64,000 nt of DNA from Alphaproteobacteria bacterium (GTDB lineage Bacteria; Pseudomonadota; Alphaproteobacteria; Caedimonadales; UBA9215). A program made the translations under genes and the position numbers. Shown here one piece after another: positions 5,432 to 33,263 of this stretch. Location: the NCBI GenBank assembly GCA_009993885.1, contig JAACSN010000010.1, forward strand, positions 16,945 through 80,944, in the 5' to 3' direction. Position 1 is the stretch's first letter. Every line of letters starts with the position of its first letter. The notes beneath the pieces were generated by a model. The model did no database searches. It saw only the letters and a program-made list of their open reading frames with translations, and was not told where the DNA came from.

Positions 5432-5439
5432 AAAAATAA

Positions 5440-10321: not shown

Positions 10322-11107
10322 ATGATTCATAATTATACTATGAGTATAAATATAGAACAAAAAATAAAAAACTTGCTAAAATTACACCGCCAAGGTGTAC
10401 CTTTTCTCGCACAGTGGATGGTAGCTCAGGAAATCTCACCTCAGCTTCAAGAGCGCTATGTTAAGGGTGGGTGGCTTGAGTCAATCGGACATGGCGCCTA
10501 TAAAAAATTCAGCGATGAAGTAAGTTGGCTGGGAGCTGTTTATGCCCTACAAAGCCAAGCGCATCTCAATATCTATGTGGGAGCGCTAACAGCTCTATCT
10601 TTGCATGGCCGGGAGCACTATTTGCGTTTTGGGGAAAGCGCCTCATACACCTTCTCTTCTAATTTACGGAAGCCTCCTTCTTGGTTTGTGAAGCATCCTT
10701 GGGAGACCAAAAACGTTCATATCTGTACTAAATTTTTACCCAACAATGTTGGTCTCACGAATTATTCAGAAGGCCATTTTGACGTCCAAGTAGCATCCTT
10801 AGAGCGGGCCTTTTTAGAATGCCTTTATTTAGCTCCTTCCTATATCAGCTATGTTGAGTGCTATCAAATCTTTGAAGGCTTAGGAAATTTACGTCCGGAT
10901 CTTCTACAACAACTTCTAGAAAATTGCGGCTCTGTTCGTGTAAAACGCCTGTTCTTATATATGAGCCAAAAAATGCAACACAGTTGGTCACCTTTTCTGG
11001 ATGTGAGTGGTATTACTTTGGGTAAGGGAACACGCTCCCTTGAAAAAGGTGGTGTGTACGTGCCTGAATTTAACTTAATGATCCCGAAAGACTTGTTTGA
11101 ATTATGA
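10322..11107 (+). CDS. AbiEi-family antitoxin/transcriptional regulator (type IV TA, abortive infection AbiE)
   Basis: N-terminal pattern GVPFLAQWMVAQEISPQLQERYVKGGWLESIGHGAYKK is typical of AbiEi. ATGA overlap with the downstream AbiEii gene. Confidence 0.75.
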   Translation: MIHNYTMSINIEQKIKNLLKLHRQGVPFLAQWMVAQEISPQLQERYVKGGWLESIGHGAYKKFSDEVSWLGAVYALQSQAHLNIYVGALTALSLHGREHYLRFGESASYTFSSNLRKPPSWFVKHPWETKNVHICTKFLPNNVGLTNYSEGHFDVQVASLERAFLECLYLAPSYISYVECYQIFEGLGNLRPDLLQQLLENCGSVRVKRLFLYMSQKMQHSWSPFLDVSGITLGKGTRSLEKGGVYVPEFNLMIPKDLFEL

Positions 11108-15131: not shown

Positions 15132-15701
15132 TCATTTTTCAAAACGCCTAAACCATTCTAAACGATACGCTTGAGCAAACACCGCGTCTTGAATATAGAG
15201 CATATTCTCTGAATTCCTGCTATTTGCAGCTTTGCTAAAGTTATAGCTGCCAGTAATCAACCGTGCCCCGTCGACGATGATAGTCTTATTGTGGGCAATG
15301 CCTTGCACATCATCTATTTTGGTTTTTATGCCTGCTTTGCTAAGGCGATGGATTTGAGAGTATGGTGCTTTGAGTTGGCTTTTATCAAAGAGGATTTTTA
15401 CAGTGATCCCCTTTCTATGAGCCTCAATCAAAGCATCAGAAATAGGCAAGGAGGTAAAGCTGTAGGCCTGAACAAGGATTTCTTTCTTGGCTGATTGGAT
15501 GGCATGTAGGGCTAGCTTCTCGCATTGCCCCTCAGGAGAAAAACACACGTTAAGCGGAGGTGATTCCGTTTCAGAGGAAAACACCATTGGCAATTGGCCT
15601 TCGTAATACAGGTAGCCAGAGGCAAATCCAAATAGGAACAACAAAGGCATAACGCTTAGGGTAGATGTTGCTCTCTTGCGGTGTATTTTCTTAGATGTCA
15701 T
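15132..15701 (-). CDS. Phospholipase D-family endonuclease, Nuc-like (single HKD motif), with N-terminal signal/anchor
   Basis: HNKTIIVDGARLITGSYN matches HxKxxxxDxxxxxxGSxN. N-terminal hydrophobic segment LSVMPLLFLFGFASGYLYY. 11-nt overlap with the upstream gene. Confidence 0.85.
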   Translation of the reverse strand: MTSKKIHRKRATSTLSVMPLLFLFGFASGYLYYEGQLPMVFSSETESPPLNVCFSPEGQCEKLALHAIQSAKKEILVQAYSFTSLPISDALIEAHRKGITVKILFDKSQLKAPYSQIHRLSKAGIKTKIDDVQGIAHNKTIIVDGARLITGSYNFSKAANSRNSENMLYIQDAVFAQAYRLEWFRRFEK

Positions 15702-17726: not shown

Positions 17727-18011
17727 TTAGGAAGTTATGCCACGCTTATCTTGAAACAATTCTGCCCCTTTATTAGCTAGAAGGTCAATGTGGAATTCTT
17801 GATTTTGCATCATTTCTTTGAGCTCTAGGAGGCCACCTAGGATGGCGAAGATGTTCTCTTTTTTCTCAAGATTTTCTTGGAGGTTGTCGCCTGCTTGCAC
17901 ATCGAAGCTTTCCATAAGACCAGACTTTTCAAAGAGCCCTCCAAGCTGAATTAATGTTCTTGTTCGGGCCCGCCGAAAGGAGGTGTGTGTATGATGATTT
18001 TCTTGATTCAT
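17727..18011 (-). CDS. traD: Ti-type conjugal transfer protein TraD (small relaxosome accessory protein)
   Basis: Trimmed to the ATG at 18011. RRARTRTLIQLGGLFEKSGL resembles the conserved basic-IQLGGL-KAGL core of Ti/Rhizobium TraD. Position is traC-traD, divergent from traA. Confidence 0.7.
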   Translation of the reverse strand: MNQENHHTHTSFRRARTRTLIQLGGLFEKSGLMESFDVQAGDNLQENLEKKENIFAILGGLLELKEMMQNQEFHIDLLANKGAELFQDKRGITS

Positions 18012-18027
18012 TCTATATCTCTTTCTC

Positions 18028-18315
18028 TCAAACCGACTTAGCAACCGGCTGTGCTTTTTGATCAATACATTTAGTGTTTCGAGGCTTTGTAAATTGAAAG
18101 ATGGTTGCAGCTTGAAGCCACTTCTCCTTTTGATCTTTTGGTGAGCAGCTCCAAGAATCTTGCACAATGCACGCGGCTAGTTGCGGCGTGAATTTGTCAC
18201 CGATTTCTGAGGAGAGATATTTTAGAAGATGTTGAGCTTGTCGTTTTTCGAGGTCTTTCTTTTTCTCTTTAAGCTCTGCAATCTTAGAGTCGATTGCTTG
18301 TAGGGATTGAGGCAT
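18028..18315 (-). CDS. traC: Ti-type TraC-like relaxosome accessory protein
   Basis: Small coiled-coil N-terminus (IAELKEKKKDLEKRQAQ). First gene divergent from traA, immediately upstream of traD, as in Ti-plasmid traCD(G)/oriT/traA loci. Sequence-level similarity was not verified. Confidence 0.5.
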   Translation of the reverse strand: MPQSLQAIDSKIAELKEKKKDLEKRQAQHLLKYLSSEIGDKFTPQLAACIVQDSWSCSPKDQKEKWLQAATIFQFTKPRNTKCIDQKAQPVAKSV

Positions 18316-18430: not shown

Positions 18431-18510
18431 GCATTTGCAAAATGCTTGAAAGGCGCGCAGATACGTTGCATAATGCAACTATACGCTTTGTCGCAAGCGA
18501 CGTACCCTCA
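18431..18510 (-). promoter_or_regulatory. Candidate oriT (inverted repeats plus a MOBQ-like nick motif on the minus strand)
   Basis: Inverted repeats at 18431-18445, 18465-18479 (gttgcat-a-atgcaac) and 18490-18501. On the minus strand the second repeat is followed directly by GTATCTGCGCGCCTTTC, which resembles remembered RSF1010/pTiC58 nick regions (...GTAAGTGCGCCCT / ACGTATAATTGCGCCCT). Confidence 0.45.
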
Positions 18511-18537
18511 CAATCCCCAGACTTTACACGGAGTTCA

Positions 18538-21500
18538 ATGGCCCTAGCCCACACCAGACTTAAGGTATTTTCACGTTCATCAAGGCGAACAGTTGGTTCT
18601 CTTGCCTATCGTGCAGGTGTGTGTTTGTTAGATAAAGAAACGGGCGAACTTCACGATTACAGCAAGAAACAAGTTCATTCCGTTGATTTATTGATTCCTG
18701 AAGATGCTCCACAGTGGGCACAGGATTTACAAAAGAAAATTGCTGAGAATCGAACAGCCGGCGTTCAAGAACTTTCCGATATCGCTGAAGCTGCCGAAAA
18801 AAGAAAAGACTCCCAAGTATATCGTGAATATGAGTTCTCTTTGCACCGTGAATTAACCGATGCTCAGAACAAAGAATTGGCTTTAAAGTTCCTTCAAGAA
18901 CAGTTCTGTTCCAGAGGGATGATGGTTAAAGCAAACTTTCATTTTGACGTTGATAAAGAGGGTAATAGAAAACCCCATTGTCATGCTGTGATGCTGACAA
19001 GGCGCCTTGAAGAACATGGTCCCTCCAAGTTGAAAGATCGGAGCTGGAATCATAAAGATCTAGCCACAGAATGGCGCAAAGAATTCTGTAATTATTCCAA
19101 TGAGGCTTTTAAAAAACTTGGCCTTGATATCGTGCTGGATCCCCGTACTTACGCAGAGCAAGGCATTAACATTGAACCCCAAACAAAACTGAGTCGAAAC
19201 ACCCTTGAAATCGAACAGCGTCATGGTGTAAATCCCAAAGATATTCTCTCCACACCGGTGACAACCAGAGGGCAAGATTTTCAACAAATCAGCTTGCGCA
19301 ACCTTTACAAAATCATCGATAACCCCAAGATCGTTTTGGAAGATATTTCAAAGCAACAAATGACTTTCATGTGGGGAGATGTTGTTAAGTTTTTGGCTCG
19401 TCATATTGATGACCAAGCCTTGTTTGAACGTGTGTGCTTAAAGCTTCAAAGCTCTGAAGAACTGGTTTGTGTTAAAGAAGGAGGCTCTTTATCCCAACGG
19501 GTCTTTACAACCAAGACACGCCTTGAGGAAGAAACACGCTTTGTTGAAAATGTTAGATCCTTAAAACATAGTCATACTCACAGCGTTGATCCTACTGTTG
19601 TTCAGTCTGTTATTGACTCAACCAACCACGCATTTCAAGAACGATCTAAAAAGCCTAAAGCCTCTTTATCCGATGATCAGGTACGCGCAATCCGTCACAT
19701 GGCTTCTTCAAATCAGCTCAGTTTTATAGAAGGCTATGCAGGGGCCGGTAAGACCACCGTGATGCGCGGCATGAAAGAAATCTGGGAAGCAAATGGTTAT
19801 AAAGTTTATGGACTTGCCCCGACAGGACGGGCAAGTGATAACCTTGCGGACTGTGGCATTAGCTCACAAACCGTTGATCGCTTTTTAAGATCCTATGAAC
19901 ATGGCCAAAACCAGCTCAACTCAAAGAGTATTCTTGTGCTCGATGAAGCAGGTATGGTGAGCAGTAAAAACTTTACGGCTCTTATTGAAGCCATAAAAGA
20001 ACTGGGTGTTAAGCTGGTGGCCTGTGGGGATCGAGGACAGCTCTCTCCCGTTGAAGCGGGGGCTCCTTTTAGGCTTGCCATTAATGAAATCGGCAAAGCA
20101 GATTTAACGACAGTTCTGCGCCAAAAAGTTCCCTGGCAATCACAGGCAACGTCTCTTTTCGGAGAAGGAAAAACAGAGGATGCTTTGCGCCTCTATGGTG
20201 AGCATGGGCGCATTAAAATTGTTGAGGAATCACTACCCGCAACTATTGTGGAACAATACAATATTTCCCGCCGTATTACGGGAAATATCGCTCACGAAAT
20301 GAATCAAGATATTGAGCGGGCGAAAGAACACGGCGAAGAGCTTCCTTTCAAAAAACATCATGACTATGGCTTATTCATAGACTGGAAGAACACTAGAGAC
20401 ACCTGCACAAAAGAAATCTTTCAGAACATAAAAACCTACAAAGACGTTATGAAAGAAATGGGTGTTGATGGTGTTGATTTCTGTAACAAGGTTATTAACC
20501 ACCCTCAAAAAATAACTCAAGAGTACGACAAATACCGCCTCGCCAAGAAACTTGAGGTAGATTGGCGTATTGATGTTACCCATACCTGTGATCCTCGCCT
20601 TGAAACCAAAAAAGAGCTTATAAGCGATTGGTTTAAATCCACCCAAGATCATCCAGAGGCAAAGCAAGCCATGATGGCTTATAGCAACAGGGATGTGCTT
20701 CACCTCAACATGATGGCCCGCCAGCTTAAAAAAGAATCTGGTGAAATTGGAAAAGACGAATTTACCTATACCATCGAGCGTAATGATGGCGAGGAACTAG
20801 GGACACGTAAAATTATCCTTGAAGAACGAACCTTTAGTAAAGGGGATCAAATTGTCTTCACAGAAAACAATACAGGCCTTGGGGTAAGAAATGGTACCTT
20901 GGGGCAAATCACGTCTCTGGATAAATCAAAGATCACAGCAACCTTTAAAGAAGAAGGCGTTGAGAAAGAGGTTTCCTTCTCTCCAAATCTTTATAAGCGA
21001 TTTGATAACGGTTGGGCTCTGACCATTCATAAAAACCAAGGGGCTACTGTTGATCTGGCATTTAAGCTCGCTAGTTTTGAAGAATATAAAAACTTAAGTT
21101 ATGTCGGTATGACCCGCCATGAAAAAGACGCTAAACTTTACGGATCCGATTTCGATTTCTACCGTGATGAAAAAATATATGATCGCTTGGGGCGCCACCA
21201 GGACAAATTGTCTTCTTTGGATTATCTCAGCCCTGAGGATTCTGAAAAGCTGCTCAAGTCCGAAAGAGATCGGCTCAATAAGACCTTTGAGGCTGTTGGT
21301 CGTAAGCTTGAAGCTGTTGGTTATGTGGGCGGCAGAGCATGGGGGCAGCTCTGCGACAAGTTCCTAGGGAGAACCCCAGAGAGTAACCTCATTAGAGTTG
21401 ACTACGAAGCCCTTCATTACCATAAGACAGAAGCCACCAGAGCCGATGAGGTTCTTCGAGGCATTAAATATGATGACTCTATCCTGTCTCGTGATGTTAT

Positions 21501-23637
21501 TCTCAAATTTGACGATCAAATTGAGGTGAAGAAAACAGAAGCTCCAGAGACGAAAGAGAAGCAGGAGACACTAGAAAAGCAAGTTGAAGCAGTCGTACCT
21601 ATATCTCCATTTGCTTCAGCATCAAAGAAAGCTGTTCAGCCTAAAGAAGAGCTGCCTACCACTAGCCCTCCAGTGGAGCCGGTTGTTGATACTATAGTTT
21701 CTGAGCCAGACAAAAAGACAGCTCCTGAGGCAGGAGAAAACAGAAAAGCGGATGTGCCCAAAGCTGAACAAACTGTTGTTGAGACTCCACTCAAACAACA
21801 AAAACAACGGCCAGACCGCAAGCAGAAACTACCCACGCAAGACTTCCAAAAGCTTATAAGAGATGTCGAAGGGGCCATCCGCATTGAAGATCTAGCAAAG
21901 GATGTTTTAGGGGCTCGAAATCTTAACACCAGCTTATCTAATTCTTCCCAACTAAGGTTTGGGCGTCAGGGAAGTTTGTCTATTGAGTTAAAGGGGCAAT
22001 ATGCAGGTTCTTGGAAAAACTGGGAAAATGATGAAAAAGGCGGCCCCTTAAAGCTCATTCAAAATGAAAAAGGATTAGATTTTAATGCGTCTCTTGCCTT
22101 TGCATCAAACTACTGCCGAGGAAGTATTGCAAAGGATATTGATAATTTCTTAAAGGGCAAAAAAGGGCGAGAGCTTTCTCCTGCTGAACGTAAAGCTCAA
22201 GAAGCAGCCTATAAAGCAGAATGCCTTAAACAAGAAGCAGAAACACTGCGTATTAGTGATGCAAAAGTTCAAGACATCCAAGCACTCGTTGCAAAGGCTC
22301 ATCCCCTTACGGGTACGCCCGCAGAAACTTATTTGCGAAAAGAACGCGGCATTCAAGGTGATCTACCAGAGTCCTTAAGGTACCTAGCGCCAAAAACCTC
22401 ATTTTCCTATAAAGGAAAAAGCATCCCAATAAAAAGTGGTGCGCTACTATCGGTTGCAACGGATCGTCACGGTGTGATTAAAGCTATTCAAATAACTCAG
22501 CTCACAGAAGATGGAAAAAAAGCTGTTGGATTTGATGGGGCTAAGCTACCAAAAAGAACCTATGGCGTTCAAAAAAGCTCTTTTGTAGAGCTTCAAAAAG
22601 GAAGTCTTAAAGATCCTATCATTCTATCTGAAGGCATTGAAACAGCGCTCTCGGTGAAAGAAACAGGAATTAAAGGAAGAATTTTGTGCTCCCTTGGAAC
22701 CTCTAATGTCGGTAATCTTGACGTGAAAGGTCGAGATATTGTTATCGCAGCAGATTGGGATGGCAGCTTTGAAGTGCAATCTTGGAAAGCAACAGAGAAA
22801 GCTAGGGTAGGTCTTGAAGCTAAAGGAAATGCTGTTTCTTATATTCTGCCCATAAAAGATCCATGGAAAACGCCAGAATTGACCTCCGAGTTAAGAAATG
22901 GAAAACTGGATTTTAACGATCTCTTAAAACAAGAAGGTGTAAACTCAGTAATAGATCGTGTATCAGATCGACTCCCCGGGGTTATTGGCACGATGTCATC
23001 CTCTAGGGAACTTCAAATTAAGGATTCCAATGAAAGACAAGAAAGTAATCCCCTTTCCGAAAAACAATCTACTGACCCTCGGGTTAACCTGTCAGCAGAT
23101 CACGCCAAGGACCCGGATCAGCTTTTGGCGCAAATGGACAAAGCAACTTCTCAAGAAGCGGCCTTAAAAGGCAATATCCTCGCTTACTTTGAGCAGGAAC
23201 TTTCGAAACCAGAAAATAGAAACTGGAACAAAGAACACGTCCTAGAGGACGTTCAGAAGAACCCTCTTGATGCCCTTAGCTGGTGGCATAAAGACTGTGG
23301 CGGCAGTGCGTTCGACCCTAACAAATCTCTGAATGATCAGCCTTCTAATTCACAGACTGGCAGCTCTTTGGACGATTCCCTAAAAATCCCTGAGGATGAT
23401 TTTGCAAAAGACTTCGCCAAAGAGCTTAAAATTTTGGATGACAGCATCGAACGCGTTTCTCATGAGCAAGGTTACCAAGGTGCTTTTGCCAATTATACCC
23501 AACAAAGAGAAAACCTTCTAAAGGGCCTTGATGGTGCTAAAATAGAAGAACTCAAAGCACACGAACCAGAGCTAGCTCATCGCATTGAAGAATGGCAAAC
23601 CTTAGAAAAAATTCGTGAGATAGGCTTAGGATTATAG
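18538..23637 (+). CDS. traA: Ti-type TraA: MobA/MobL (MOBQ) relaxase, RecD/TraA-like helicase and C-terminal primase-associated/Toprim domain
   Basis: Start trimmed to the ATG at 18538 (GGAG RBS; MALAHTRLKVFSRS...SLAYRAG with the relaxase Tyr). His motif HFDVDKEGNRKPHCHAVM. Walker A GYAGAGKTT (nt ~19732) and Walker B VLDEAG. C-terminal LRFGRQGSLSIELKGQYAGSWKNWENDEKGGPLKLI, then Toprim ILSEGIETALS ... IAADWDG (nt ~21860-22940). Confidence 0.9.
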   Translation: MALAHTRLKVFSRSSRRTVGSLAYRAGVCLLDKETGELHDYSKKQVHSVDLLIPEDAPQWAQDLQKKIAENRTAGVQELSDIAEAAEKRKDSQVYREYEFSLHRELTDAQNKELALKFLQEQFCSRGMMVKANFHFDVDKEGNRKPHCHAVMLTRRLEEHGPSKLKDRSWNHKDLATEWRKEFCNYSNEAFKKLGLDIVLDPRTYAEQGINIEPQTKLSRNTLEIEQRHGVNPKDILSTPVTTRGQDFQQISLRNLYKIIDNPKIVLEDISKQQMTFMWGDVVKFLARHIDDQALFERVCLKLQSSEELVCVKEGGSLSQRVFTTKTRLEEETRFVENVRSLKHSHTHSVDPTVVQSVIDSTNHAFQERSKKPKASLSDDQVRAIRHMASSNQLSFIEGYAGAGKTTVMRGMKEIWEANGYKVYGLAPTGRASDNLADCGISSQTVDRFLRSYEHGQNQLNSKSILVLDEAGMVSSKNFTALIEAIKELGVKLVACGDRGQLSPVEAGAPFRLAINEIGKADLTTVLRQKVPWQSQATSLFGEGKTEDALRLYGEHGRIKIVEESLPATIVEQYNISRRITGNIAHEMNQDIERAKEHGEELPFKKHHDYGLFIDWKNTRDTCTKEIFQNIKTYKDVMKEMGVDGVDFCNKVINHPQKITQEYDKYRLAKKLEVDWRIDVTHTCDPRLETKKELISDWFKSTQDHPEAKQAMMAYSNRDVLHLNMMARQLKKESGEIGKDEFTYTIERNDGEELGTRKIILEERTFSKGDQIVFTENNTGLGVRNGTLGQITSLDKSKITATFKEEGVEKEVSFSPNLYKRFDNGWALTIHKNQGATVDLAFKLASFEEYKNLSYVGMTRHEKDAKLYGSDFDFYRDEKIYDRLGRHQDKLSSLDYLSPEDSEKLLKSERDRLNKTFEAVGRKLEAVGYVGGRAWGQLCDKFLGRTPESNLIRVDYEALHYHKTEATRADEVLRGIKYDDSILSRDVILKFDDQIEVKKTEAPETKEKQETLEKQVEAVVPISPFASASKKAVQPKEELPTTSPPVEPVVDTIVSEPDKKTAPEAGENRKADVPKAEQTVVETPLKQQKQRPDRKQKLPTQDFQKLIRDVEGAIRIEDLAKDVLGARNLNTSLSNSSQLRFGRQGSLSIELKGQYAGSWKNWENDEKGGPLKLIQNEKGLDFNASLAFASNYCRGSIAKDIDNFLKGKKGRELSPAERKAQEAAYKAECLKQEAETLRISDAKVQDIQALVAKAHPLTGTPAETYLRKERGIQGDLPESLRYLAPKTSFSYKGKSIPIKSGALLSVATDRHGVIKAIQITQLTEDGKKAVGFDGAKLPKRTYGVQKSSFVELQKGSLKDPIILSEGIETALSVKETGIKGRILCSLGTSNVGNLDVKGRDIVIAADWDGSFEVQSWKATEKARVGLEAKGNAVSYILPIKDPWKTPELTSELRNGKLDFNDLLKQEGVNSVIDRVSDRLPGVIGTMSSSRELQIKDSNERQESNPLSEKQSTDPRVNLSADHAKDPDQLLAQMDKATSQEAALKGNILAYFEQELSKPENRNWNKEHVLEDVQKNPLDALSWWHKDCGGSAFDPNKSLNDQPSNSQTGSSLDDSLKIPEDDFAKDFAKELKILDDSIERVSHEQGYQGAFANYTQQRENLLKGLDGAKIEELKAHEPELAHRIEEWQTLEKIREIGLGL

Positions 23638-23778
23638 ATATCAATCTTTATGCTGTATACGTTTTCGCATTTCTTTTTTGTAGTCTTGTTGGCACATTTT
23701 GTCAAAAAACAATTATCTTGACGGTGCCCCCAGACAGCAGCTTATGATAACTTATAGAAAAATTGAAAAGAATATTAA

Positions 23779-26700
23779 ATGGTGAGAAGACTCTATTTCC
23801 AAAAATCAATTAAGGAGCTTGAAGATATTTTTGCACGGAAAAGTAGTGATTGTAATGTACTTGCCGACCTAAAAAGCGAGCTAGAGTTTCGAAACACCAA
23901 AAGAGCACTGTCGCTGAAGGTTAAAGTGATTGATATGCTTCAAAGCCTCAAAAAGGCAGTACCAAAAGGAGAAACATGGCATATCTCTGAAAAGCCAGCA
24001 CAAATGACCATAGAACATCCATCGACAGAGCCAACGAGTCCTGAAGTCAAAAGAACTACTTTAAAGCGCAATGATTTTGGTCCCAAACCAGCCATGGAAA
24101 ATGCCCCTTCAGATATACTTCAAGCATGGACTGCCCTCGAAGTACTGTCTCCGCAAGGCTACAAGAATGAAGCGGACTTAGCTGCTGGTGATAAATCTAG
24201 AATCGCACGTTTCGATGAAAGAGACCTACCTTGGAAGCTGGGCGAAAGATCGCGACCGAAGAAGCGACTTTATTACGAACTCATTTTAGGTTCTATCGCT
24301 CTTGCTCCTGCCGTTGAAGAACTCCTGAAACTCTACTCCGATGATAGACCAGATAAGCCAAGCATGAAAGGCTTTTGCCCGATTGCTACCATACTGCTAG
24401 ACAAGGAGGGTAGACCACTAGAGGAAGAAACCTCAGCTGCAATATCAAGTTTTGCATGGGGGGTGCCTATCGCTTTGCAAGGCGATTTGAAAAGCCTTGC
24501 TGATTGGCCACAAAAAGAAAAGCAAATCCTATCTACCTTTCGGAAGCATCTTATTAGGCGGGATAGCAATAACGAAATTATCCCTCTTACGAAAAGCCAT
24601 ATCACAGAGTTGTTTGATCATCTCGTTGCCGCTTTGAGTCTCGTAGGCCATGAGATAAAAGCTCCATACTTCGCATTGCGTCGCTTTGAATATTTTGCTA
24701 GCAAGACTCCGCCCGAGCCAGGACTGCTGAACTCGTTTTTTCTTGAAGATCTTTCACTCGCTCTAACATTGCACAACAATAATAATCTCCCACATGCCCT
24801 TAAGCATTATCTGGGAGTCTCCAGCCCCTTACAGCAAACGGACTTGCTGAAAGATGACGCAGGCTTGCAGCAATTACTACAGCCAGCTTATACGCCACTT
24901 GGAAGATGGCCCGGAAATGGACGCCATCCTCTCGCATTGCTTCAACAAGCAGCAGTCAACGCTTCAGATAAACGACTGTTGGACACCGGAATTTTGGCTG
25001 TGAATGGCCCGCCAGGTACAGGTAAAACTACACTGCTTCGGGACGTTGTGGCCGCGCGGCTAATTGAACGTGCAATGGTGATGAGCGAGTTCAAAAGGCC
25101 ATCTAGCGCATTTATCCCAACAAACCAAAGCTTCCAAAGAAGCGGAGCAAAGATTGTGCTTCACAAGTTAGATGATCGACTCAAAGGCTTTGAGATGGTG
25201 GTCGCATCATCCAACAATAAAGCGGTGGAAAACGTAAGTGCTGAGCTGCCTGCATTGGAAGCTATTGCACAAGATGCGACCAGCCTTCGGTATTTCAAAA
25301 GCATCTCAGATAAGATTCTTGGGCGTGAAAGCTGGGGTACAATCGCAGCTGTACTTGGCAACTCTTCTAATCGATACCTGTTTTCGCAGGCTTTCTGGCG
25401 CGACGAAGAGAACGGGCTTTCTACCTATCTTAATCACGCAAGTGGACTGCCACAGACTGTTTCGGAACTACAGGAAAATGGTCCGTCGATAATACGTAAC
25501 CGTGAAATCATAGATAGTGAACATCCTCCTGCGAACGCGCGCGAAGCACTGGTACGTTGGGAAACGGCGCGTGCAGATTTTCTCGGTGCGCACAAAGCAT
25601 CGACAGAGTCTCAAAAAACTCTTCAAGCCATTCACAAAAACCTTATTTTTCTAGCAAGGATCATTGCTGAGATGGAGGTTCTGGAAAAACAAATCGCATT
25701 ATCTGAAGAAGAAGCAAAAAGCCTTTCACCTTCGATTGCGGATGCGCAGGAACAGCTAGAGTGCGCAGATAAAGCACTCAAAGAAAGCGAACGAGCTCAG
25801 AAAAACAACCTTGTGCACCGTCCAGCTTTCTTTGCTCGCCTGTTTCGAACAGGGCAATTCAAATACTGGCGATCTCACCATGATGAGCTTTCAACGACTG
25901 CGCTCAAAGATAAAAATATAGCCGTATCGTACAAATTAGAGCTCGAAGAACTTCGAGCAAAATTATCAGAGAGGCATCGATCTATTGCCGAAGCAAAAGC
26001 TCAGCTTACAAGCCTCGAATCTGAAAAGACGAACCTGGAAGAAAAAATTGAAAGTGCTAAGGCTGATCTGGGCATCCCTATCCCTGATGCAGATTTTTTC
26101 GCTCTGGATCATGAAAATATCCAGATGGCCAATGTATGGTTTAACGCCGCTGAGCATCAATTGCGTGATCGGGTTTTCGAAACGGCCATTGCTTTGCACC
26201 GTGCATTCATCGACTGTGCGGCTGATCCGCTCAGACAGAATTTATCTATCTTCACAGAGAGTTTTTGTACACGCTCCTTTGGCACGTCGCAAAAGGATGA
26301 TCTGATTGCTGATTTGTGGTCGTCATTCTTCCTTGTCGTGCCAGTGGTCTCGACAACTTTTGCATCTGTCCACAGGATGTTTTCACGTCTACCCTCCGAA
26401 GCGCTTGGCTGGTTGTTGGTTGATGAAGCCGGTCAAGCCCTTCCTCAAGCTGCGGTCGGCGCGATGATACGAACAAAAAGATCAGTTGTAGTGGGTGACC
26501 CGTTGCAGATCGAGCCAGTAGTGACCCTTCCCAGAACCTTAACCGAAGAAGTTTGCAGGTTTTTCGGGATTGATCCTTTGAAGTACAATGCGCCCGACGC
26601 ATCGGTGCAGACGGTAGCAGATGCTTCGAGCATGTACTGCGCAAGATTTCCGATAGGAAGCGGGCATAGGGATGTGGGTGCTCCACTTCTTGTGCATCGC

Positions 26701-27279
26701 CGCTGCGAAAGTCCCATGTTCGATATCTCTAACGAAATTGCCTACGCAAACCTTATGGTGCAGGCGAAAAAACCAACCTCTGCGCATTCAATTCTAGGGT
26801 TTTCATGTTGGATAGATGTTGTGGGTAAGCCTGGGCCGGATAAATGGTGTGCTGATGAGGCAGTTGTCCTCATAGACATGCTTCGTAAACTTCGAGGTTC
26901 TGGGGCTAGATCTGATCTCTACATCGTGACACCATTTGTAATTGTGCAGAATAATCTCAGGCAAGAATTGCTCAAAAGCGGCGTTTTGGAGGGCTGGACG
27001 AAAAACCCCAAGGCATGGGTCTGGGAGCATGTTGGTACGGTCCACACCGTACAAGGACGGGAAGCTGAAATTGTCTTTTTCGTCCTTGGTGCCCAAGGTT
27101 CCTCACAAAATGGTGCGCGTGGATGGGCGGGTGGCAGGCCAAATCTCGTAAATGTAGCAGTAACTCGTGCGAAAGCTTCATTGTTTGTGATTGGTAACCG
27201 TCAGCTTTGGAAATCATCAGGGGTGTTCTCCGTGCTAGCCCGATTCTTACCTGAATCTTCGAAAGGTGGCGTGTCCTGA
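23779..27279 (+). CDS. Large SF1 (UPF1/DNA2-like) helicase with ~400-aa unknown N-terminal domain and coiled-coil insertion
   Basis: Motif I GPPGTGKTT (aa 410), Ia VVASSNNKAVENV, II LLVDEAGQA (aa ~880), VVVGDPLQIEP, VHTVQGREAEIVFF, NVAVTRAKASLFVIG. Heptad-rich aa ~600-770 between motifs Ia and II. Confidence 0.85.
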   Translation: MVRRLYFQKSIKELEDIFARKSSDCNVLADLKSELEFRNTKRALSLKVKVIDMLQSLKKAVPKGETWHISEKPAQMTIEHPSTEPTSPEVKRTTLKRNDFGPKPAMENAPSDILQAWTALEVLSPQGYKNEADLAAGDKSRIARFDERDLPWKLGERSRPKKRLYYELILGSIALAPAVEELLKLYSDDRPDKPSMKGFCPIATILLDKEGRPLEEETSAAISSFAWGVPIALQGDLKSLADWPQKEKQILSTFRKHLIRRDSNNEIIPLTKSHITELFDHLVAALSLVGHEIKAPYFALRRFEYFASKTPPEPGLLNSFFLEDLSLALTLHNNNNLPHALKHYLGVSSPLQQTDLLKDDAGLQQLLQPAYTPLGRWPGNGRHPLALLQQAAVNASDKRLLDTGILAVNGPPGTGKTTLLRDVVAARLIERAMVMSEFKRPSSAFIPTNQSFQRSGAKIVLHKLDDRLKGFEMVVASSNNKAVENVSAELPALEAIAQDATSLRYFKSISDKILGRESWGTIAAVLGNSSNRYLFSQAFWRDEENGLSTYLNHASGLPQTVSELQENGPSIIRNREIIDSEHPPANAREALVRWETARADFLGAHKASTESQKTLQAIHKNLIFLARIIAEMEVLEKQIALSEEEAKSLSPSIADAQEQLECADKALKESERAQKNNLVHRPAFFARLFRTGQFKYWRSHHDELSTTALKDKNIAVSYKLELEELRAKLSERHRSIAEAKAQLTSLESEKTNLEEKIESAKADLGIPIPDADFFALDHENIQMANVWFNAAEHQLRDRVFETAIALHRAFIDCAADPLRQNLSIFTESFCTRSFGTSQKDDLIADLWSSFFLVVPVVSTTFASVHRMFSRLPSEALGWLLVDEAGQALPQAAVGAMIRTKRSVVVGDPLQIEPVVTLPRTLTEEVCRFFGIDPLKYNAPDASVQTVADASSMYCARFPIGSGHRDVGAPLLVHRRCESPMFDISNEIAYANLMVQAKKPTSAHSILGFSCWIDVVGKPGPDKWCADEAVVLIDMLRKLRGSGARSDLYIVTPFVIVQNNLRQELLKSGVLEGWTKNPKAWVWEHVGTVHTVQGREAEIVFFVLGAQGSSQNGARGWAGGRPNLVNVAVTRAKASLFVIGNRQLWKSSGVFSVLARFLPESSKGGVS

Positions 27280-27303
27280 TGTTGGTCTCGTCGTATTCTT
27301 TCT

Positions 27304-27435
27304 GCCAAAGAGCTTAAAATTTTGGATGACAGCATCTAGCGCGTTTCTCATAAGAAAGATTACCAAGGCGTCCTCGCTAACTATACCCATCAAAACCAGC
27401 AAGCACAAACCCGTGGTGCTGAGTTAAAGTTTTAA
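27304..27435 (+). pseudogene. Degenerate extra copy (tail 2) of the traA 3' end
   Basis: 27304-27336 is identical to 23416-23448. Translation AKELKILDDSI*RVSHKKDYQGVLANYTHQNQQAQTRGAELKF* versus the TraA C-terminus AKELKILDDSIERVSHEQGYQGAFANYTQQ...; it has an internal deletion and an in-frame stop. Confidence 0.75.
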
Positions 27436-27559
27436 AGATCTAAATGAATTAGAGTTTAGCGCAAAGTTAAATCATGAACGCCAGAATAAGAAAAGTTTGG
27501 ACTAAGAGCTTGTCTTTAAAAAAGTGTTCAAGTTTGCCTGGGGTATCAACGCTAAATAT

Positions 27560-27587
27560 TTGACTTTTCCTTCCTTTAAATTATCAT
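27560..27587 (+). promoter_or_regulatory. Possible sigma70-type promoter for the 27612 gene
   Basis: TTGACT, 16-nt spacer, TATCAT, about 25 nt upstream of the ATG. Confidence 0.3.
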
Positions 27588-27611
27588 CTACATAAAAAAG
27601 AAGAATTTATT

Positions 27612-28418
27612 ATGGTTTCAAACAATCAAAATCAATCTAATTTAAATGAAAATTCCTTATATTTTCTTAATGAAAGGCTCGTCGCTGACGCATTCTGGGG
27701 TTTTGTTTATAAAAATAGCTTGAAAAAAACAGGTTTCCCCGAAAATATAAAAGACATCCCTAAAGATTTATGGTCACGTGAGCGTATAATTGATTTATTA
27801 AAAGAATATAAAATTACATTAAAAGCAGAGGGCGACCTAGAGGAGCTTATTGAGTCCATATATTTAGTAGGTTCTAATATAATTACTAAACATATGAAAG
27901 AAGGAAAAAACATAATAGGGCCTGTATATGTTGAGGACTTTAAAGAGTGCAAAGATCCATTTTTTAATTTTTCTCACCTTGTAAATCGGCTTAAAAGCGA
28001 CTCAAACGAAAACTGTGACTATTTACTGAAATTAAATGGTGACTATGAGCTATCAGGAGATTTCCTTTTGAGAACTCCATTACCCTCTGTGGTGCTATTA
28101 AAAGAAGAGCCTAAAAAAAAGATTAATATCATAATCCCAAATACAGAAAAGGCGTTAGGGTATCAGAAAACTCTTATTTTACCGATGCAAGAGTTATCAA
28201 CATTACCAAATAATAAAGAGGGGTATAAATACTTTGCAACAGGTATCTTTCATATTCCAACACAAATCCCTCATGATAAGTATTGGGCGAAATTAATTCC
28301 AAACAGTTTGTGCTTTTTAGAAGCCTTTAATGCAATCATAGCAAAAGGACAAATTGTGAAGAAAAAAAAGAAGAAAGACTTTTTTAAGAACGCTTTTTCA
28401 AGATTTTTTAAAAAATGA
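27612..28418 (+). CDS. Hypothetical protein (268 aa), visibly more AT-rich than its neighbours, Lys-rich tail
   Basis: Clean ORF with ATG start. No recognisable motif. Sits between two traA-tail remnants. Confidence 0.55.
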   Translation: MVSNNQNQSNLNENSLYFLNERLVADAFWGFVYKNSLKKTGFPENIKDIPKDLWSRERIIDLLKEYKITLKAEGDLEELIESIYLVGSNIITKHMKEGKNIIGPVYVEDFKECKDPFFNFSHLVNRLKSDSNENCDYLLKLNGDYELSGDFLLRTPLPSVVLLKEEPKKKINIIIPNTEKALGYQKTLILPMQELSTLPNNKEGYKYFATGIFHIPTQIPHDKYWAKLIPNSLCFLEAFNAIIAKGQIVKKKKKKDFFKNAFSRFFKK

Positions 28419-28452
28419 TGTATTTTACAAATCAGACTAACAAGGTGCCCTT

Positions 28453-28604
28453 GCAACTATATCCAATAACGCGAAGACCTCTTCAAAGGCCTTGATGACG
28501 CCAAGATAAAAGCACTCAAAACCCACGAGCCTGAACCAGCCCATCGTATCGAAGAATATCAAAATTCGCAAGCACAAGCCAGTGGGGTTGGTTTAGGAAT
28601 TTAA
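28453..28604 (+). pseudogene. Degenerate extra copy (tail 3) of the traA 3' end
   Basis: Translation NYIQ*REDLFKGLDDAKIKALKTHEPEPAHRIEEYQNSQAQASGVGLGI* aligns with the TraA end NYTQQRENLLKGLDGAKIEELKAHEPELAHRIEEWQTLEKIREIGLGL*. Confidence 0.8.
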
Positions 28605-28606: not shown

Positions 28607-29926
28607 TTACTCTTTTTTCTCAAAAATGCGTTTACCATTTTTATCTTCCCTTTTACTTGAGTACTGAAAGAATGAATAGAAACGTTGAGGGTGAGTTCCT
28701 ATAAATCCTCTGCAAATCACCTTGTTTTGAACAAACGCATCAACCGATAATTCGTTAGGATTTAGGTCTAAAGCAAAACTTTTTCTGTATGGACATAAGT
28801 ATATTATTTTTGTAATTCCAGCCGCTATGACTAATTTGCTGCATAGGTGACATGGAAAAGTTGTTGTATATAGAGTGCTACCGTGAAGCTTTACTCCTCT
28901 GCAAGCTGCTGTAGCAATCGCCGTTTGCTCTGCGTGGACATTTTGTGAAAATTCTAAAAGATCACCCAATCTGCTGTTTGTGAGGTAAGTCTTAACTTGT
29001 TCTTTATTGAGTTCAAATTTTTCTTCTAGTGAGGTGCTTAGATCTTCTATTAAGTCCTTTTTATGCCGTGCATTTGTATCATCGCCTTGTGTGTCACGAT
29101 AGACGCCACCATGGAATTTAGGCACATTATTGCAACCACTAGCCAACAATTCGCCATGTGAATCAACAATTGCAGATCCGACTTGGCGGGATTGATCAAC
29201 AGAACAACAAGCGGCTGTGTATGCCCAATTCATTGCTACTTCTTCTTCTGTCGGTGGCTCAAATAGGTTCTTTTTCAAAATCAGTTTCAAAAAACGTTTT
29301 ATTGGCTCTTTAAAATCATCACCTCTATAGTCATTGAGAAAATAGTCACAAAGAGGTAGTGTTTTAAGCATTTGTTGACCAATTCTACGATTTTCTTTTT
29401 TATCTGGAATAATAAGATCTTCTCCCTCATCTCGAATAATAAGATTTTGTATATACGCTTCTTTTAACGATTTTTCATCCAAGTCTTTTCTAAAAATAAA
29501 TTTTTTATTCTTCGTTTCTTTGAAATTTCCCCCTGTAAGCTCACCAAAAGTCTTTCTGCGCAAGCGTCGTCTTGCATCATTTCGAGAGGTGTGGACTCCC
29601 AATCCATAAAAATATTTGTTTTCATTTTTTAGCTCATTATATTCCTCTTCCCGTTTTAGATGACTTATGACTACAATGCTCTTCTCGCCTGTTTGCTCTT
29701 GCAGCTTTTCCTTAATTTTATTCAATAGATTAATATCGTTATTACCACTATCGATTTTCTCCTTTGTGCTAATGGGACTTCCTTTAATAAGTCCAGATAC
29801 TTTAACTTCCTGTACATTGTATCCAAGTTGTGATCCGCAAAATTCAATTTCAGAGTAGATATCATCAAAACGTGAGGCCACTCTTCCTACCAGTGCAATA
29901 ATAATAGGTTGTTCCGTTTTACTCAT
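28607..29926 (-). CDS. Anti-phage-type dCTP/dCMP deaminase (N-terminal kinase-like domain and C-terminal zinc cytidine deaminase; DcdV-like)
   Basis: The ORF-track start is TTG. The ATG at 29926 has an AAGGA RBS and an ATGA overlap with the upstream gene. N-terminus IIIALVGRVASRF..., central IIRDEGED...GQQMLKTLPLCDYFLN, deaminase core DQSRQVGSAIV...NVHAEQTAIATAA...TTFPCHLCSKLVIAAGITKIIY. Confidence 0.8.
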   Translation of the reverse strand: MSKTEQPIIIALVGRVASRFDDIYSEIEFCGSQLGYNVQEVKVSGLIKGSPISTKEKIDSGNNDINLLNKIKEKLQEQTGEKSIVVISHLKREEEYNELKNENKYFYGLGVHTSRNDARRRLRRKTFGELTGGNFKETKNKKFIFRKDLDEKSLKEAYIQNLIIRDEGEDLIIPDKKENRRIGQQMLKTLPLCDYFLNDYRGDDFKEPIKRFLKLILKKNLFEPPTEEEVAMNWAYTAACCSVDQSRQVGSAIVDSHGELLASGCNNVPKFHGGVYRDTQGDDTNARHKKDLIEDLSTSLEEKFELNKEQVKTYLTNSRLGDLLEFSQNVHAEQTAIATAACRGVKLHGSTLYTTTFPCHLCSKLVIAAGITKIIYLCPYRKSFALDLNPNELSVDAFVQNKVICRGFIGTHPQRFYSFFQYSSKREDKNGKRIFEKKE

Positions 29927-30225
29927 GATAAATCCTTCCAATAAAAATATGAAAATAAAGCAGCCGTCAGCACATTAAAGACCATCCAGATTTCTTTTGT
30001 TAAATGGATAGGGAGGAATGGATTAAAAAGAATAGCTACGGCAACACAAGACCAGAGTATCCAATCTTTTTCATCTGATATGTAGCGTAAATATGCGGTA
30101 AAGCCTCCTACTCCTGTGACGGCAATTCTTAAGAAAACATAATAACCATACGGCATTGGTAGCAAAGCAATTAAGGAAAGCGCTGCCACGAGTAGAAAAG
30201 GGATTTTGAGGTCAGAGATTTTCAT
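29923..30225 (-). CDS. Small polytopic membrane protein (100 aa)
   Basis: Three to four hydrophobic helices. Start overlaps the upstream gene by 14 nt, and its stop forms ATGA with the deaminase start. Confidence 0.65.
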   Translation of the reverse strand: MKISDLKIPFLLVAALSLIALLPMPYGYYVFLRIAVTGVGGFTAYLRYISDEKDWILWSCVAVAILFNPFLPIHLTKEIWMVFNVLTAALFSYFYWKDLS

Positions 30226-30916
30226 TTATTTGTTCTCCCCATATGAAGGGAATATCCAAATTTATTAATTCACCCTTTCGTTCTTTTGCAAAAATAGAAC
30301 TATAAATTTCTCTATAAATGCGATCATCTGGATCGACTTGCGATATTTCTTCTGGTGTAGCAACGCCTGATCTTGCATAGAACTCTTTCCCTGATACATA
30401 CCCTGGAAAGATTGAGTAATAAATTTTATCGTAAGCACTCTCCCTATCTCGGTGCTGTTCTAGGATATTCATAATGCTACAAACTCTTGGCCTTAGAGAG
30501 TTATAAAGAATCCCCGTGTAATAAAAATACATTAAATATGCCGTTAAAATTCTTAGGGCAAAAAACGCGCTCCACTGATTTATCTCTGTCAGAGAGTGTT
30601 TTAATAAGACATTACTATCTAAACATAGAAGTCTTTTTTTACCTCCCAGCCCCATTTTTTCTCTTCTCTTGCGCATGAGATCACAGTCTTGAGATTCAAA
30701 ATCCTTTAGTTGAAGATTATGCCAACGAACCATTGTTCCCATAAAATTCCCTAACTTATCTGCTGATATATCATTTGCTTCTAAAAGTGCAGGCATGTCA
30801 GCAAAAACTGACATTGCAAAGTTGGTTTCTAACAAACTAAGATCTTCAGGCGTTGCATTCTTTAAATAAGTTTCAAAGAATTTTAACCTTGATCTAGTTC
30901 TAAAATATTGAAACAT
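30212..30916 (-). CDS. Hypothetical protein (234 aa), first gene of the deaminase operon
   Basis: ATG with an AAGGGG RBS. One hydrophobic stretch (WSAFFALRILTAYLMYFYYTGILY). No recognisable family. Confidence 0.55.
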   Translation of the reverse strand: MFQYFRTRSRLKFFETYLKNATPEDLSLLETNFAMSVFADMPALLEANDISADKLGNFMGTMVRWHNLQLKDFESQDCDLMRKRREKMGLGGKKRLLCLDSNVLLKHSLTEINQWSAFFALRILTAYLMYFYYTGILYNSLRPRVCSIMNILEQHRDRESAYDKIYYSIFPGYVSGKEFYARSGVATPEEISQVDPDDRIYREIYSSIFAKERKGELINLDIPFIWGEQINENL

Positions 30917-30980
30917 CCCCTTATTTCCTAAAAAAAATTAAGCTGATAATCAAGGATATCAAAAACTTATTAAATAACTG

Positions 30981-31544
30981 TTAATTCTGCATAATCTCCT
31001 CATAGTACTCTTTCCAATATTCGCCCATTTTGCCCTTAAGGTTCTTTTGTTCCTGGGGCGATAGCTTTTTAAATGCATGGCGAAATAGGATGCCCTCACG
31101 TAGGTACTCAAAGTGGCGTTGGCTGAGGGAGTAGTTTACTTGTTGGGGGAAGAAATACCAGAGGATGGTTCCGCTGAGAAGACTCCCAAAGCAAAAGGCG
31201 AGGCAGATATATAGGCTCGCTTTTTTCATTTTTTTCTCTTGTTTTTGGTGGGAGGATTTGAGCTCTTGCATGAGGCCATCCACAGTCTCAGAAAGTTTTG
31301 AGAAGTGCTTTGAAAGGGATGTTGTCATCAACACCACCAACTCAGGATGGGAAGATTTTGTTGTTTCACGGATTGTATCCTCAACGTTCTTGCGGCACCC
31401 ATTGAGTTCGCTGATTTCATCTTGAAGTGATGTTTTTAACGCCTCCAATTCCTTTTTGAGCTGGATCGTTTCATCAACTTTATTTTGAAAAATTGTCGTG
31501 TTGCGATCAAATTTTCTCATGGCGTCTGTGAGGTCAGTTTCCAT
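30981..31544 (-). CDS. Hypothetical coiled-coil protein with one TM helix (187 aa)
   Basis: Heptad-rich N-terminal half, TM helix LYICLAFCFGSLLSGTILWYFF. Lies 12 nt downstream of the coupling-protein gene. Confidence 0.55.
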   Translation of the reverse strand: METDLTDAMRKFDRNTTIFQNKVDETIQLKKELEALKTSLQDEISELNGCRKNVEDTIRETTKSSHPELVVLMTTSLSKHFSKLSETVDGLMQELKSSHQKQEKKMKKASLYICLAFCFGSLLSGTILWYFFPQQVNYSLSQRHFEYLREGILFRHAFKKLSPQEQKNLKGKMGEYWKEYYEEIMQN

Positions 31545-31556: not shown

Positions 31557-33263
31557 TTAGTTTTTTAAATCAAATGAGGAATGAAGGGATTTGCGATCGT
31601 GATAACTCATCTTGAGTTTTGAAATGGGGAACTTGCCTGGGAACTTTAGATAACAGGTCAGATCTGGCAATTGCGCCACCTCTGTTGGGAGTACAAGCCG
31701 ACGTCTGCTCTTTTGTTGATTAAGGGAAATTCCATCACGCATTTGGTGAGCACCATAAGAGAGACTTTCTTTTGCCTCTTCAATTTCTTCTTCCCCTAAC
31801 CATTTTGAAATTTGCTCACAGGCTTTTGATTCCTCGCTCCTAAAAAAGAACTTTGTGTTAAAGAGGTTAAGGATTGTTTTCGATCCGTTGTGGCCGTAAA
31901 TTTCATCGAACTGTGACATACTTTGAAGACCTGCAAATAGGCACGCTCCATATTTTCGTCCCTTGGATAAGAGAGCCTGAAGGGACTGTAGCTTCTGTAT
32001 GGCTGGCAACTCATCCATAATAAACCAAACACACCTTTCTTTTGATTCACTTTGTGACATTAAGAATGTGGATGCTGAATTAAAAACAGCGGCAATGAGA
32101 GGATTTAAGGTGTGGAGCATATCTTCATTGGCCGTCACGAAAATCCAGTTTTCTTTGCTCTCATCCCTGATCCAATCTGACAGAGAAAAACTTTTTTCTC
32201 CTTTTCCCAGATGTTTTAAAAACTGAACGCTACTGCTGAGGGTTGATCTGAAACTCAAAGTTGTTCGCTCACCCGCTGGGTCCGCAAAAGGATAAGCATC
32301 GGTTCCCCAGAAGAAGGCCCCAAATTCTTTCAAAGAAGATTTAATCAAAATGCGATGAAGTTCTTTCGGGGAAATATCCCGCTGTTGTGCTTTTTGAAGT
32401 CCTACGGAGAAGAGCTTTGCCGATCCATTTTGCCAGAGAGGATCTGAGTGCTCTCCGTTCTTGGGCACAATGGATTTAGCAAGGTGGTCAAATTGATATT
32501 CATGGGAACATTCATGGATTATATCCCACTTTGCTGATCGTCCATCAAAGGGATTGAGGATGACATCGCCCCGATCAGGGTTGTAATATTTTGAAATCAT
32601 ATCCCCTGTGGTATCTATCACGAAGGATCTTTGCTTCTCCTTTGCTATTTGCGGTAAGAGGTCATTATAGAGGTTTGTTTTACCTGAACCGGTCGTTCCA
32701 ACGGCGAGGATATGTTTTGTCTCAGAATTTTTTATGAGGGGGAGTTTTTCAACTTTCAAGTGAGAGGCTTTACGGCGTAATTTAATCATCCACTTCAGCC
32801 TAAAGGAAGAAACAAGACGTTGCCCTCGAAGGCGCTTGGATTTTAAACTTTTTCGTCCCTTTAGGCCCCAGAACAGCATCAGCAAAAGAAGGCATATAAT
32901 GGTTACATTGATAGAAGAAGTTACTTGCTTCTTAATGGTATCTTCCACATAAGATCGCATATTGTGGGTGTAAGGATGGTGGATAATATCGATTGCGCGT
33001 ACTTTTTGTGTGTAATACTCATCAGGCCAACTAACCATAAATCTATGACGCATTGAGTCACTTTTGTAAGGTAATATGAACTCAGCTTGATAGCTGGAGA
33101 GATACTGGCGCAAGATATAGCTTGGAATACTATTCCAAGTTTTCCAGGCCAAAACACTGCCGCCTATTAAAAAAGAAACAACAAGTCCAACACTGAGAAC
33201 TTGTTTAATCATCCTCAAGTTATGGATATGAAGTTGTCCGCCTCGAACTAAGTTTTTAGCCAT
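31557..33263 (-). CDS. traD: F-type type IV coupling protein TraD
   Basis: Two N-terminal TM helices, Walker A VGTTGSGKTN, Walker B WFIMDELP. Position downstream of traG. Confidence 0.85.
   Translation of the reverse strand: MAKNLVRGGQLHIHNLRMIKQVLSVGLVVSFLIGGSVLAWKTWNSIPSYILRQYLSSYQAEFILPYKSDSMRHRFMVSWPDEYYTQKVRAIDIIHHPYTHNMRSYVEDTIKKQVTSSINVTIICLLLLMLFWGLKGRKSLKSKRLRGQRLVSSFRLKWMIKLRRKASHLKVEKLPLIKNSETKHILAVGTTGSGKTNLYNDLLPQIAKEKQRSFVIDTTGDMISKYYNPDRGDVILNPFDGRSAKWDIIHECSHEYQFDHLAKSIVPKNGEHSDPLWQNGSAKLFSVGLQKAQQRDISPKELHRILIKSSLKEFGAFFWGTDAYPFADPAGERTTLSFRSTLSSSVQFLKHLGKGEKSFSLSDWIRDESKENWIFVTANEDMLHTLNPLIAAVFNSASTFLMSQSESKERCVWFIMDELPAIQKLQSLQALLSKGRKYGACLFAGLQSMSQFDEIYGHNGSKTILNLFNTKFFFRSEESKACEQISKWLGEEEIEEAKESLSYGAHQMRDGISLNQQKSRRRLVLPTEVAQLPDLTCYLKFPGKFPISKLKMSYHDRKSLHSSFDLKN

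Follow-up and report, generated by a model that had tools for sequence, protein, structure and literature searches.

What placed three copies of the end of one conjugation gene in a row on the same strand? The 64-kb window analysed here (the whole stretch of DNA, from which all unlabelled positions are counted) comes from an aquifer metagenome contig and contains an integrative conjugative element (ICE), here termed RAGE-like. Its relaxase gene, traA (18442–23637, forward strand), is intact and encodes a Ti-type relaxase of 1731 amino acids, as assigned with Pfam, NCBIfam and an AlphaFold2 (AF2) model. As the original prediction, made from the letters alone, had claimed, the last 222 nucleotides (nt) of traA (23416–23637) recur twice downstream in the same orientation. 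A blastn comparison of traA with the window returned exactly two extra matches, pairing 23416–23506 with 27304–27394 (85.7% over 91 nt, E = 6e-25) and 23473–23599 with 28438–28563 (75.6% over 127 nt, E = 5e-19). We refer to the three gene ends as tails 1, 2 and 3; the pair formed by tails 1 and 2 is the largest direct repeat that a repeat search found in the window. We favour, with moderate confidence, the reading that the tails, like strata, record C-terminal displacement that took place twice in succession at this ICE's relaxase gene, brought about by general recombination.

Tail 1 consists of a head (23416–23463, forward strand) and a remainder, termed R1 (23464–23637, forward strand), which is the translated end of the current traA. 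It completes an intact open reading frame (ORF) of 1731 codons' worth of protein, and tails 2 and 3, on the same strand, both carry lesions. Tail 2 (27304–27435), putatively a displaced traA end, has a head (27304–27351), a middle that extends to about 27389 and an end (about 27390–27435). It had been described as opening with 33 identical nt, containing an in-frame stop and lacking the central block, and all three features were recovered: its first 33 nt match tail 1 perfectly, an in-frame TAG lies at 27337–27339, and a 90-nt in-frame deletion is flanked by the short repeats CAACAA and CATCAA. The centre is absent, and the final 41 nt, with the stop at 27433–27435, match the end of the other tails. 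The motif AACTATAYCCA, which had been put forward as a possible junction core, only precedes this secondary deletion within tail 2. Tail 3 (28427–28604), probably the oldest displaced traA end, is truncated at its 5′ side at −179 nt from the stop. It does lack the head and keep the centre and end, as predicted; it starts earlier than claimed, at 28427 when sister tails are used as queries, so that the first approximately 43 nt are absent. As lesions, it has lost 1 nt at 28454/28455 and has a TAA in frame at 28467–28469. Its own stop (28602–28604) adjoins the stop of a convergent deaminase ORF (28607–29941), as had been noted, at a spacing of 2 nt and not 3. Tails 2 and 3 are dead, silent and degenerate copies. 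Longer upstream traA homology elsewhere, which would suit leftovers of whole degraded genes, was looked for by tblastn with the whole of TraA, and neither the window nor the cargo regions of 31 related loci yielded another traA fragment.

Misassembly does not account for the three-tail arrangement. Independent JGI assemblies have the same layout, and in Logan unitigs from 12 public runs all junctions were crossed, breaks occurred only at the exact 33-nt repeat, and the three arms meeting there had near-equal depth. An identical TraA of 1731 amino acids with its neighbours was present on 20 contigs; of the 24 public runs listed as holding the region, 23 are aquifer metagenomes and one is a hot-springs metagenome. 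Across 12 runs, the unitig that carries R1 and the helicase gene downstream of it (23419–27333) had a mean k-mer depth about 0.92 times that of the flanking unitigs (range 0.81–1.08). This depth, lower by about 8%, could reflect a bias by guanine–cytosine (GC) content or a minority of genomes without the cassette.

Tail 1 is itself a mosaic. Over the first 48 nt it is identical to tail 2 at 46 positions, as against 69–81% identity for the other nine tail pairs. Over the next 43 nt the same two tails match at 32 of 43 positions ungapped, or at 28 of 38 in a MAFFT alignment, which at about 74% is like any other pair. The difference between the head and the next segment (46/48 versus 32/43) has a Fisher p of 0.005, and for 33 consecutive matches right at the boundary of homology the hypergeometric P is 0.0016. 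The mosaic breakpoint lies at about 23463. R1, beyond it, is the outlier of the family, being 67–72% identical to sister tails that are 74–84% identical among themselves. Together, these identities and the outlying position of R1 suggest that the youngest event attached a distant R1 together with a spacer and the helicase gene to the head of the resident traA, and it would thus have left a second, near-identical head copy ahead of the old tail of the resident gene. A sliding identity scan along traA against three close relatives (loci L005, L006 and L012) revealed no clear upstream breakpoint.

The genes between the tails were placed correctly by the original prediction, a helicase ORF (23779–27279) between tails 1 and 2 and an orphan ORF (27612–28418) between tails 2 and 3. 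The helicase cargo (23741–27279, forward strand) encodes a superfamily 1 protein of 1166 amino acids with AAA_11 and AAA_12 domains, whose best PADLOC match is MkoC (1e-71). Its homologues at 65–79% protein identity are found in free-living Alphaproteobacteria such as Ruegeria, Celeribacter, Roseibium and Hoeflea, in defence-island or mobile-element settings beside Gabija-like, NACHT and DUF4238 genes. DNA homology to these free-living copies is limited to 23741–27255, so the imported unit was approximately a single gene with its 38-nt leader. The GC content of this segment is 46–49%, compared with about 40% in its surroundings. The helicase gene is thus of foreign origin. It is preceded by a spacer that starts at the traA stop (23638–23740, forward strand) and holds a promoter-like site at 23689–23716, from a scan not above shuffled expectation, and it is followed by a 24-nt spacer (27280–27303, forward strand) that forms the right-hand junction of the putative youngest insertion. 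The orphan module between tails 2 and 3 (27436–28426, forward strand) is AT-rich and comprises a spacer, with a promoter-like site at 27560–27587 from the same scan, and the ORF of 268 amino acids, for which homologues outside its own contig family were not found. The intervals 23638–23778, 27256–27303 and 27436–27611 had no match in related loci.

For comparison we sampled 27 loci from genome and metagenome scans, which included only four close relatives; a protein search with the last 299 residues of TraA gave 4 matches only. All relatives have the order traA, variable genes, a conserved gene for a 187-residue protein and traD_F, the coupling-protein gene, which is the conserved right border of this interval (31557–33263 in the window, reverse strand). 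Its content is mosaic among nine elements, and the traA–traD_F interval is the variable cargo bay of the element. In L005, L006 and L012, the traA stop lies within 0–30 nt of a convergent neighbouring gene, and tail 3 occupies the same position in the window, abutting the convergent resident cargo (28607–31544, reverse strand). This cargo begins with an anti-phage dCTP-deaminase-like gene (28607–29941, reverse strand; PADLOC 3e-94, and NCBIfam NF041025 at 1.5e-82, under the cutoff). It continues with a DUF6804 gene (29923–30225, reverse strand) that the window shares with L006 at 87% identity, and ends with genes for proteins of 234 and 187 amino acids (reverse strand) that are common to L005 and L012.

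L012 provides an independent case of displacement. There, traA ends at 3179 with its own tail, tail A, and is followed by two convergent Lipase_3 genes and then by a remnant at about 6125–6195 reading AHRVEEHQNQPVQTRGLNL up to its stop. This remnant is identical at 28 of 30 nt to the end of tail 2 of the window and lies behind different cargo, and the second lipase gene is 91% identical in nucleotides to the lipase gene that directly abuts the tail in L005. A block from a sister element therefore displaced in L012 the ancestral tail type that R1 and the helicase gene displaced in the window. The L012 case and the position of tail 3 at the traA end of its relatives bear out the proposal, made in the original prediction, that the traA 3′ end received cargo in successive additions, with surrogate ends displacing old ones.

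How would new DNA have entered? How the DNA recombined, and which event came first, is inferred as follows. Entry would have been by general, not site-specific, recombination anchored in conserved traA, with an incoming piece that brought its own traA 3′ end and the adjacent cargo gene. The far end of this piece would have joined inside the fast-diverging last approximately 220 nt of the resident gene, so that the relaxase stayed intact, and the resident end would have been shunted downstream as a silent, 5′-truncated fragment that later decayed. The ancestral traA would have ended with tail 3, abutting the deaminase and DUF6804 cargo. A piece with tail 2 and the orphan gene would have entered next, followed by a piece with R1 of tail 1, a spacer of about 104 nt and the helicase gene. 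The near-identical head duplication of 33–48 nt could have arisen by one crossover within a short stretch of identity, with a circular intermediate as modelled for rhs loci, or by later gene conversion. The older event in the window and the event in L012 would have combined a one-ended homologous join with an illegitimate one.

Several observations weigh against displacement by general recombination. The near-identical head is present at one junction only, since the overlap of tails 2 and 3 is 73% identical and the L012 remnant is 54–63% identical to its own tail A. All three right-hand junctions fall within the last 222 nt of a 5.2-kb gene. The sample is small, with four close relatives and two elements with remnants, and a donor of R1 was not among the sequences sampled by the protein search with the last 299 residues of TraA. 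In contig-level data, circles, excision and an empty site had no direct evidence. The clustering of junctions in the tail may be explained by the decay of homology between elements there, which is 57–80% in the traA tail versus 80–90% in the gene body, by the practically zero intergenic space 3′ of traA, and by the instability of longer repeats, which would be lost through recombination. The other suggestion in the original prediction, that recombination between diverged elements might have left the tails as scars, fits the evidence better than a site-specific mechanism does.

One alternative is that two or three related ICEs once stood in tandem or in several copies, and that large deletions left only the extreme 3′ ends of their traA genes. 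Tandem ICE arrays and the formation of hybrids are established in SXT/R391 and ICESt1/3, related metagenome-assembled genomes (MAGs) hold 3–6 RAGE-like loci each, and each remnant in the window precedes a downstream gene of its own, all of which would suit such an origin. However, three random deletions out of three would rarely end within the final 222 nt of traA, the bay contains no further fragments of the backbone (traD_Ti, secretion-system or integrase genes), the helicase gene comes from outside the element family, and identity over 33 nt at the exact boundary is left unexplained. We consider tandem accretion with deletion unlikely.

A second alternative, the site-specific hotspot of the original prediction, would have cassettes captured by a recombinase at a fixed core, each with an att-like site in a surrogate traA end. 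The perfect 33-nt repeat stands exactly at both ends of the helicase insert, the inserts are compact, with one gene and a short leader apiece, traA remains intact through the surrogate end, and the ICE itself follows such logic at its tRNA-Lys site with a 71-nt repeat. What speaks against capture of this kind is, first, the junctions themselves: counted from the stop, tail 2 begins at −222, tail 3 at −179 and the L012 remnant at about −70 nt, these three starts have no motif or core in common, and neither the orphan insert nor the L012 insert has an identical flanking repeat. Second, Pfam, PADLOC and NCBIfam scans of ORFs found no recombinase gene in 23638–28426, and the sole integrase of the ICE (9133–10293) lies beside the tRNA-Lys repeat. 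Inverted repeats at the inserts were only those of 10–16 nt expected by chance, with no attC-like palindrome, and no integron integrase lies beside the array. Third, among the 14 distinct elements with at least 2 kb 3′ of traA, 12 have cargo in the bay and no remnant, and remnants occur in two (the window and L012). Alternative joints were absent from 16 public runs, for which Logan contigs only were searched. Site-specific capture is, in our judgement, very improbable.

That the remnants were kept as regulatory RNA, terminator, promoter context or small peptide for the cargo is hardly credible: the tail 2 deletion is in frame and the remnants lie immediately 5′ of cargo genes or spacers, but they contain stop and frameshift lesions and diverge at the between-element rate, Rfam matched only tRNA in the window and nothing in the tails, and terminator- and promoter-like sites were not above shuffled expectation, with none convincingly placed in the tails.

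On the reading of successive displacements, which part of the relaxase was exchanged? TraA comprises, in order, MobA_MobL, an AAA_30 helicase, DUF7146, Toprim, a disordered linker and a C-terminal helical module, and matches TIGR02768 (TraA_Ti) at E = 2e-168 with 562 bits, under the curated cutoff of 590 bits. An AF2 model of its last 299 residues, built from a 5-sequence alignment (mean pLDDT 60), shows the disordered linker and, behind it, four helices that form a confident C-terminal module (pLDDT about 80–85, fragment residues 222–298). The duplicated tail begins at fragment residue 226, so the duplicated unit corresponds to a discrete C-terminal helical module that is replaced as a whole. 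A Foldseek search of the model against the PDB gave nothing with E < 1, and neither a BID-like fold nor another known fold was supported. Judging by relaxases in general, the C-terminal module may be the recognition signal for the type IV secretion system (T4SS) or the coupling protein. Live tails of this subfamily end in …G(L/V)GLG(I/L) before the stop, an ending seen in tails 1 and 3 of the window and in the tails of L006 and L012. The motif is lost in the displaced tail 2 (AELKF) and in the L012 remnant (GLNL). Remoter traA subfamilies end in …KGPSLER or …HGIAL, and the extreme C terminus of TraA may be a functional motif specific to each subfamily.

The element that carries the array spans 46.7 kb between two copies of a 71-nt direct repeat (8852–8922 and 55567–55637, 94% identity), which covers the 3′ part of tRNA-Lys(CTT). 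One end is a displaced, partial 3′ copy of the tRNA gene (8852–8922, reverse strand); the other, at 55567–55656 on the reverse strand, holds the second repeat copy and the intact tRNA-Lys(CTT) gene (55581–55656). The tyrosine integrase gene (9133–10293) is at the end distant from the intact tRNA. It is followed by AbiEi/AbiEii (10322–12036), by YgjP, DUF5677, SelO (13556–15031) and PLD-family (15132–15701) genes, and by traD_Ti (17727–18167, reverse strand; PF06412 TraD). From traD_F to about 51 kb extends an F-type T4SS (traG, H, F, N, C, B and others), with Pfam matches to TraG_N, TraH, TraF, F_T4SS_TraN, TraC_F_IV, TrbI and TrwB_AAD_bind. The right part of the ICE contains a helix-turn-helix gene, a STAND/NACHT-TPR NTPase gene (51745–54015) and, beside tRNA-Lys, an ORF of 450 amino acids (54012–55364) without a Pfam or NCBIfam match. 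The element thus combines what characterizes RAGE-type ICEs: an F-type T4SS with TraD_F, a Ti-type TraA with TraD_Ti, and a tyrosine integrase with a tRNA site and direct repeats. It has the architecture of a RAGE, as an ICE in tRNA-Lys of a Holosporales-like bacterium; as regards a host in Rickettsiales, a further mark of RAGE-type ICEs, the nearest elements are in MAGs labelled Holosporales or Alphaproteobacteria and the window is an aquifer contig, so 'RAGE-like' is the safer label. Genes of defence type on this ICE are AbiEi/AbiEii, the MkoC-like helicase, the anti-phage dCTP-deaminase-like gene and the STAND/NACHT-TPR NTPase, in a bacterium that is presumably host-associated.

We made further observations on the cargo and on the related loci. 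In a hot-spring metagenome, X24 (2025), contigs matching only a segment of about 440 nt (29866–30309) had a depth of about 40, with 1–3 for the rest of the element, and each of the four runs examined had loose ends at 29866 and 30309. It follows that another, more abundant genome or element has a near-identical DUF6804 segment with other flanks. The two lipase genes of L012 (3201–6104) are diverged Lipase_3 paralogues in tandem, with 58% amino-acid identity and a common 22-nt stretch in their upstream regions, and the distal one is the counterpart of the single lipase gene of L005 (L005:10909–12383). L004/L005 (JAJSAD010000096.1, MAG Dive96_bin4.281) is a degraded sister element: traA is broken up into three ORFs and has lost its C-terminal GLGI motif to a 1-nt deletion, both traD_F and traG are truncated, and immediately upstream of traA there is a reverse transcriptase of a group II intron. 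Each of three MAGs or assemblies holds 3–6 separate RAGE-like traA loci of different subfamilies (L005, L007, L009 and L010; L006, L008 and L011; L012, L014, L015, L019, L020 and L026), so co-resident diverged elements able to recombine are the rule in these bacteria. In L025, a remoter relative, traA is interrupted 22 codons before its stop, and the last exon, …NKENEAQIDKGPCLER with the stop, lies about 930 nt 3′ of the apparent ORF end. We rejected L025 as a further displaced tail: the segment is exon 2 of traA behind an ORF-less group II intron (Ga0115000_10009720, 4566–5498), with matches to RF01999 (98 bits, 4879–4996) and RF00029 (44 bits, 5408–5484).

How does this array compare with known systems? 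Unlike integron cassettes, it has no attC-like palindrome at the ends of its inserts and no adjacent integron integrase. Restoration of the 3′ end of a target gene on integration is known from tRNA-targeting islands, from phage 21 or e14 in icd, and from ICESt1/3 in fda with accretion, and it involves an element-encoded recombinase and a fixed core. The array is similar in that a surrogate end keeps traA functional and the displaced original lies downstream, as happens to the tRNA-Lys gene at the end of this ICE. By contrast, its inserts have neither a recombinase nor a fixed position, and an identical repeat is found at one of three junction pairs. In SXT/R391 ICEs, hotspots of variable DNA lie between conserved backbone genes. 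The bay also resembles the 'piggybacking' cargo of RAGEs (PMC10732058) in being a fixed backbone interval, here traA–traD_F, with variable content rich in defence and accessory genes; no description of stacked remnants of the end of a flanking backbone gene was found in that paper.

The original prediction knew of no described site-specific cargo capture at the tail of a relaxase gene. As a kind, the pattern seen here matches C-terminal displacement at rhs and type VI secretion system (T6SS) loci (PMC2935791, PMC5361080). At rhs loci, silent and degenerating fragments follow an intact gene, and every fragment has a near-identical core piece, its own tip and its own downstream gene (Jackson et al. 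2009, PMC2935791). One ancestral tip has been displaced there independently by different tips across strains, and RecA-type single crossovers of circular intermediates were proposed (PMC2935791). The same displacement is seen at T6SS effector loci, with homology-facilitated illegitimate recombination anchored in conserved upstream sequence as the proposed route (Kirchberger et al. 2017, PMC5361080).

We think it doubtful, though worth stating, that RAGE-type ICEs use an rhs-like, reusable way of loading, in which a relaxase C-terminal module and one passenger gene, in this case of defence type, circulate as circles or sister-element fragments and insert by recombination at the relaxase tail, which would then be a built-in site of cargo acquisition with stacked remnants that date the acquisitions. 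If the pattern is general, stacked relaxase-tail remnants would show in what order ICEs of intracellular bacteria acquired their cargo and would be a simple way to mark the boundaries of cargo modules. C-terminal displacement, so far a feature of polymorphic toxin loci, would extend to a core conjugation gene, and single defence genes such as the Mokosh-like helicase would have a route from free-living Alphaproteobacteria onto ICEs without transposases or integrases. If there are only two or three chance scars, they would be an ordinary by-product of mosaic ICE evolution.

The likeness to rhs, cdiA-CT orphan and T6SS arrays extends to several features. In the window, an intact gene is followed by same-strand, 5′-truncated, silent copies of its 3′ end, each with a downstream gene. 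Closest to the gene stands the youngest copy, and the displaced copies decay via frameshifts and stops; this youngest copy, tail 2, keeps a near-identical upstream piece (33/33 and 46/48), which tail 3 (73% in its overlap with tail 2) and the L012 remnant (54–63%) do not. The same ancestral tip, seen in the end of tail 2 and in the L012 remnant, has been displaced independently, and no integrase is involved. Unlike those arrays, the gene is that of a conjugative relaxase within an ICE and not of a toxin, one helical module in homologous variants (57–86% nucleotide identity) makes up the tips in place of unrelated toxin domains, the passengers are defence-type or orphan cargo and not immunity genes, and traA arrays are short and rare (2 of 14 elements). 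No toxin or immunity domain was found among the tails and passengers, the latter being the helicase and an ORFan; because of this and of the homology among the tails, the array is not a member of the polymorphic-toxin systems, although it works like the C-terminal displacement family. The pattern is thus known in kind, and its occurrence at a relaxase gene at the cargo hotspot of an ICE is a variant of it.

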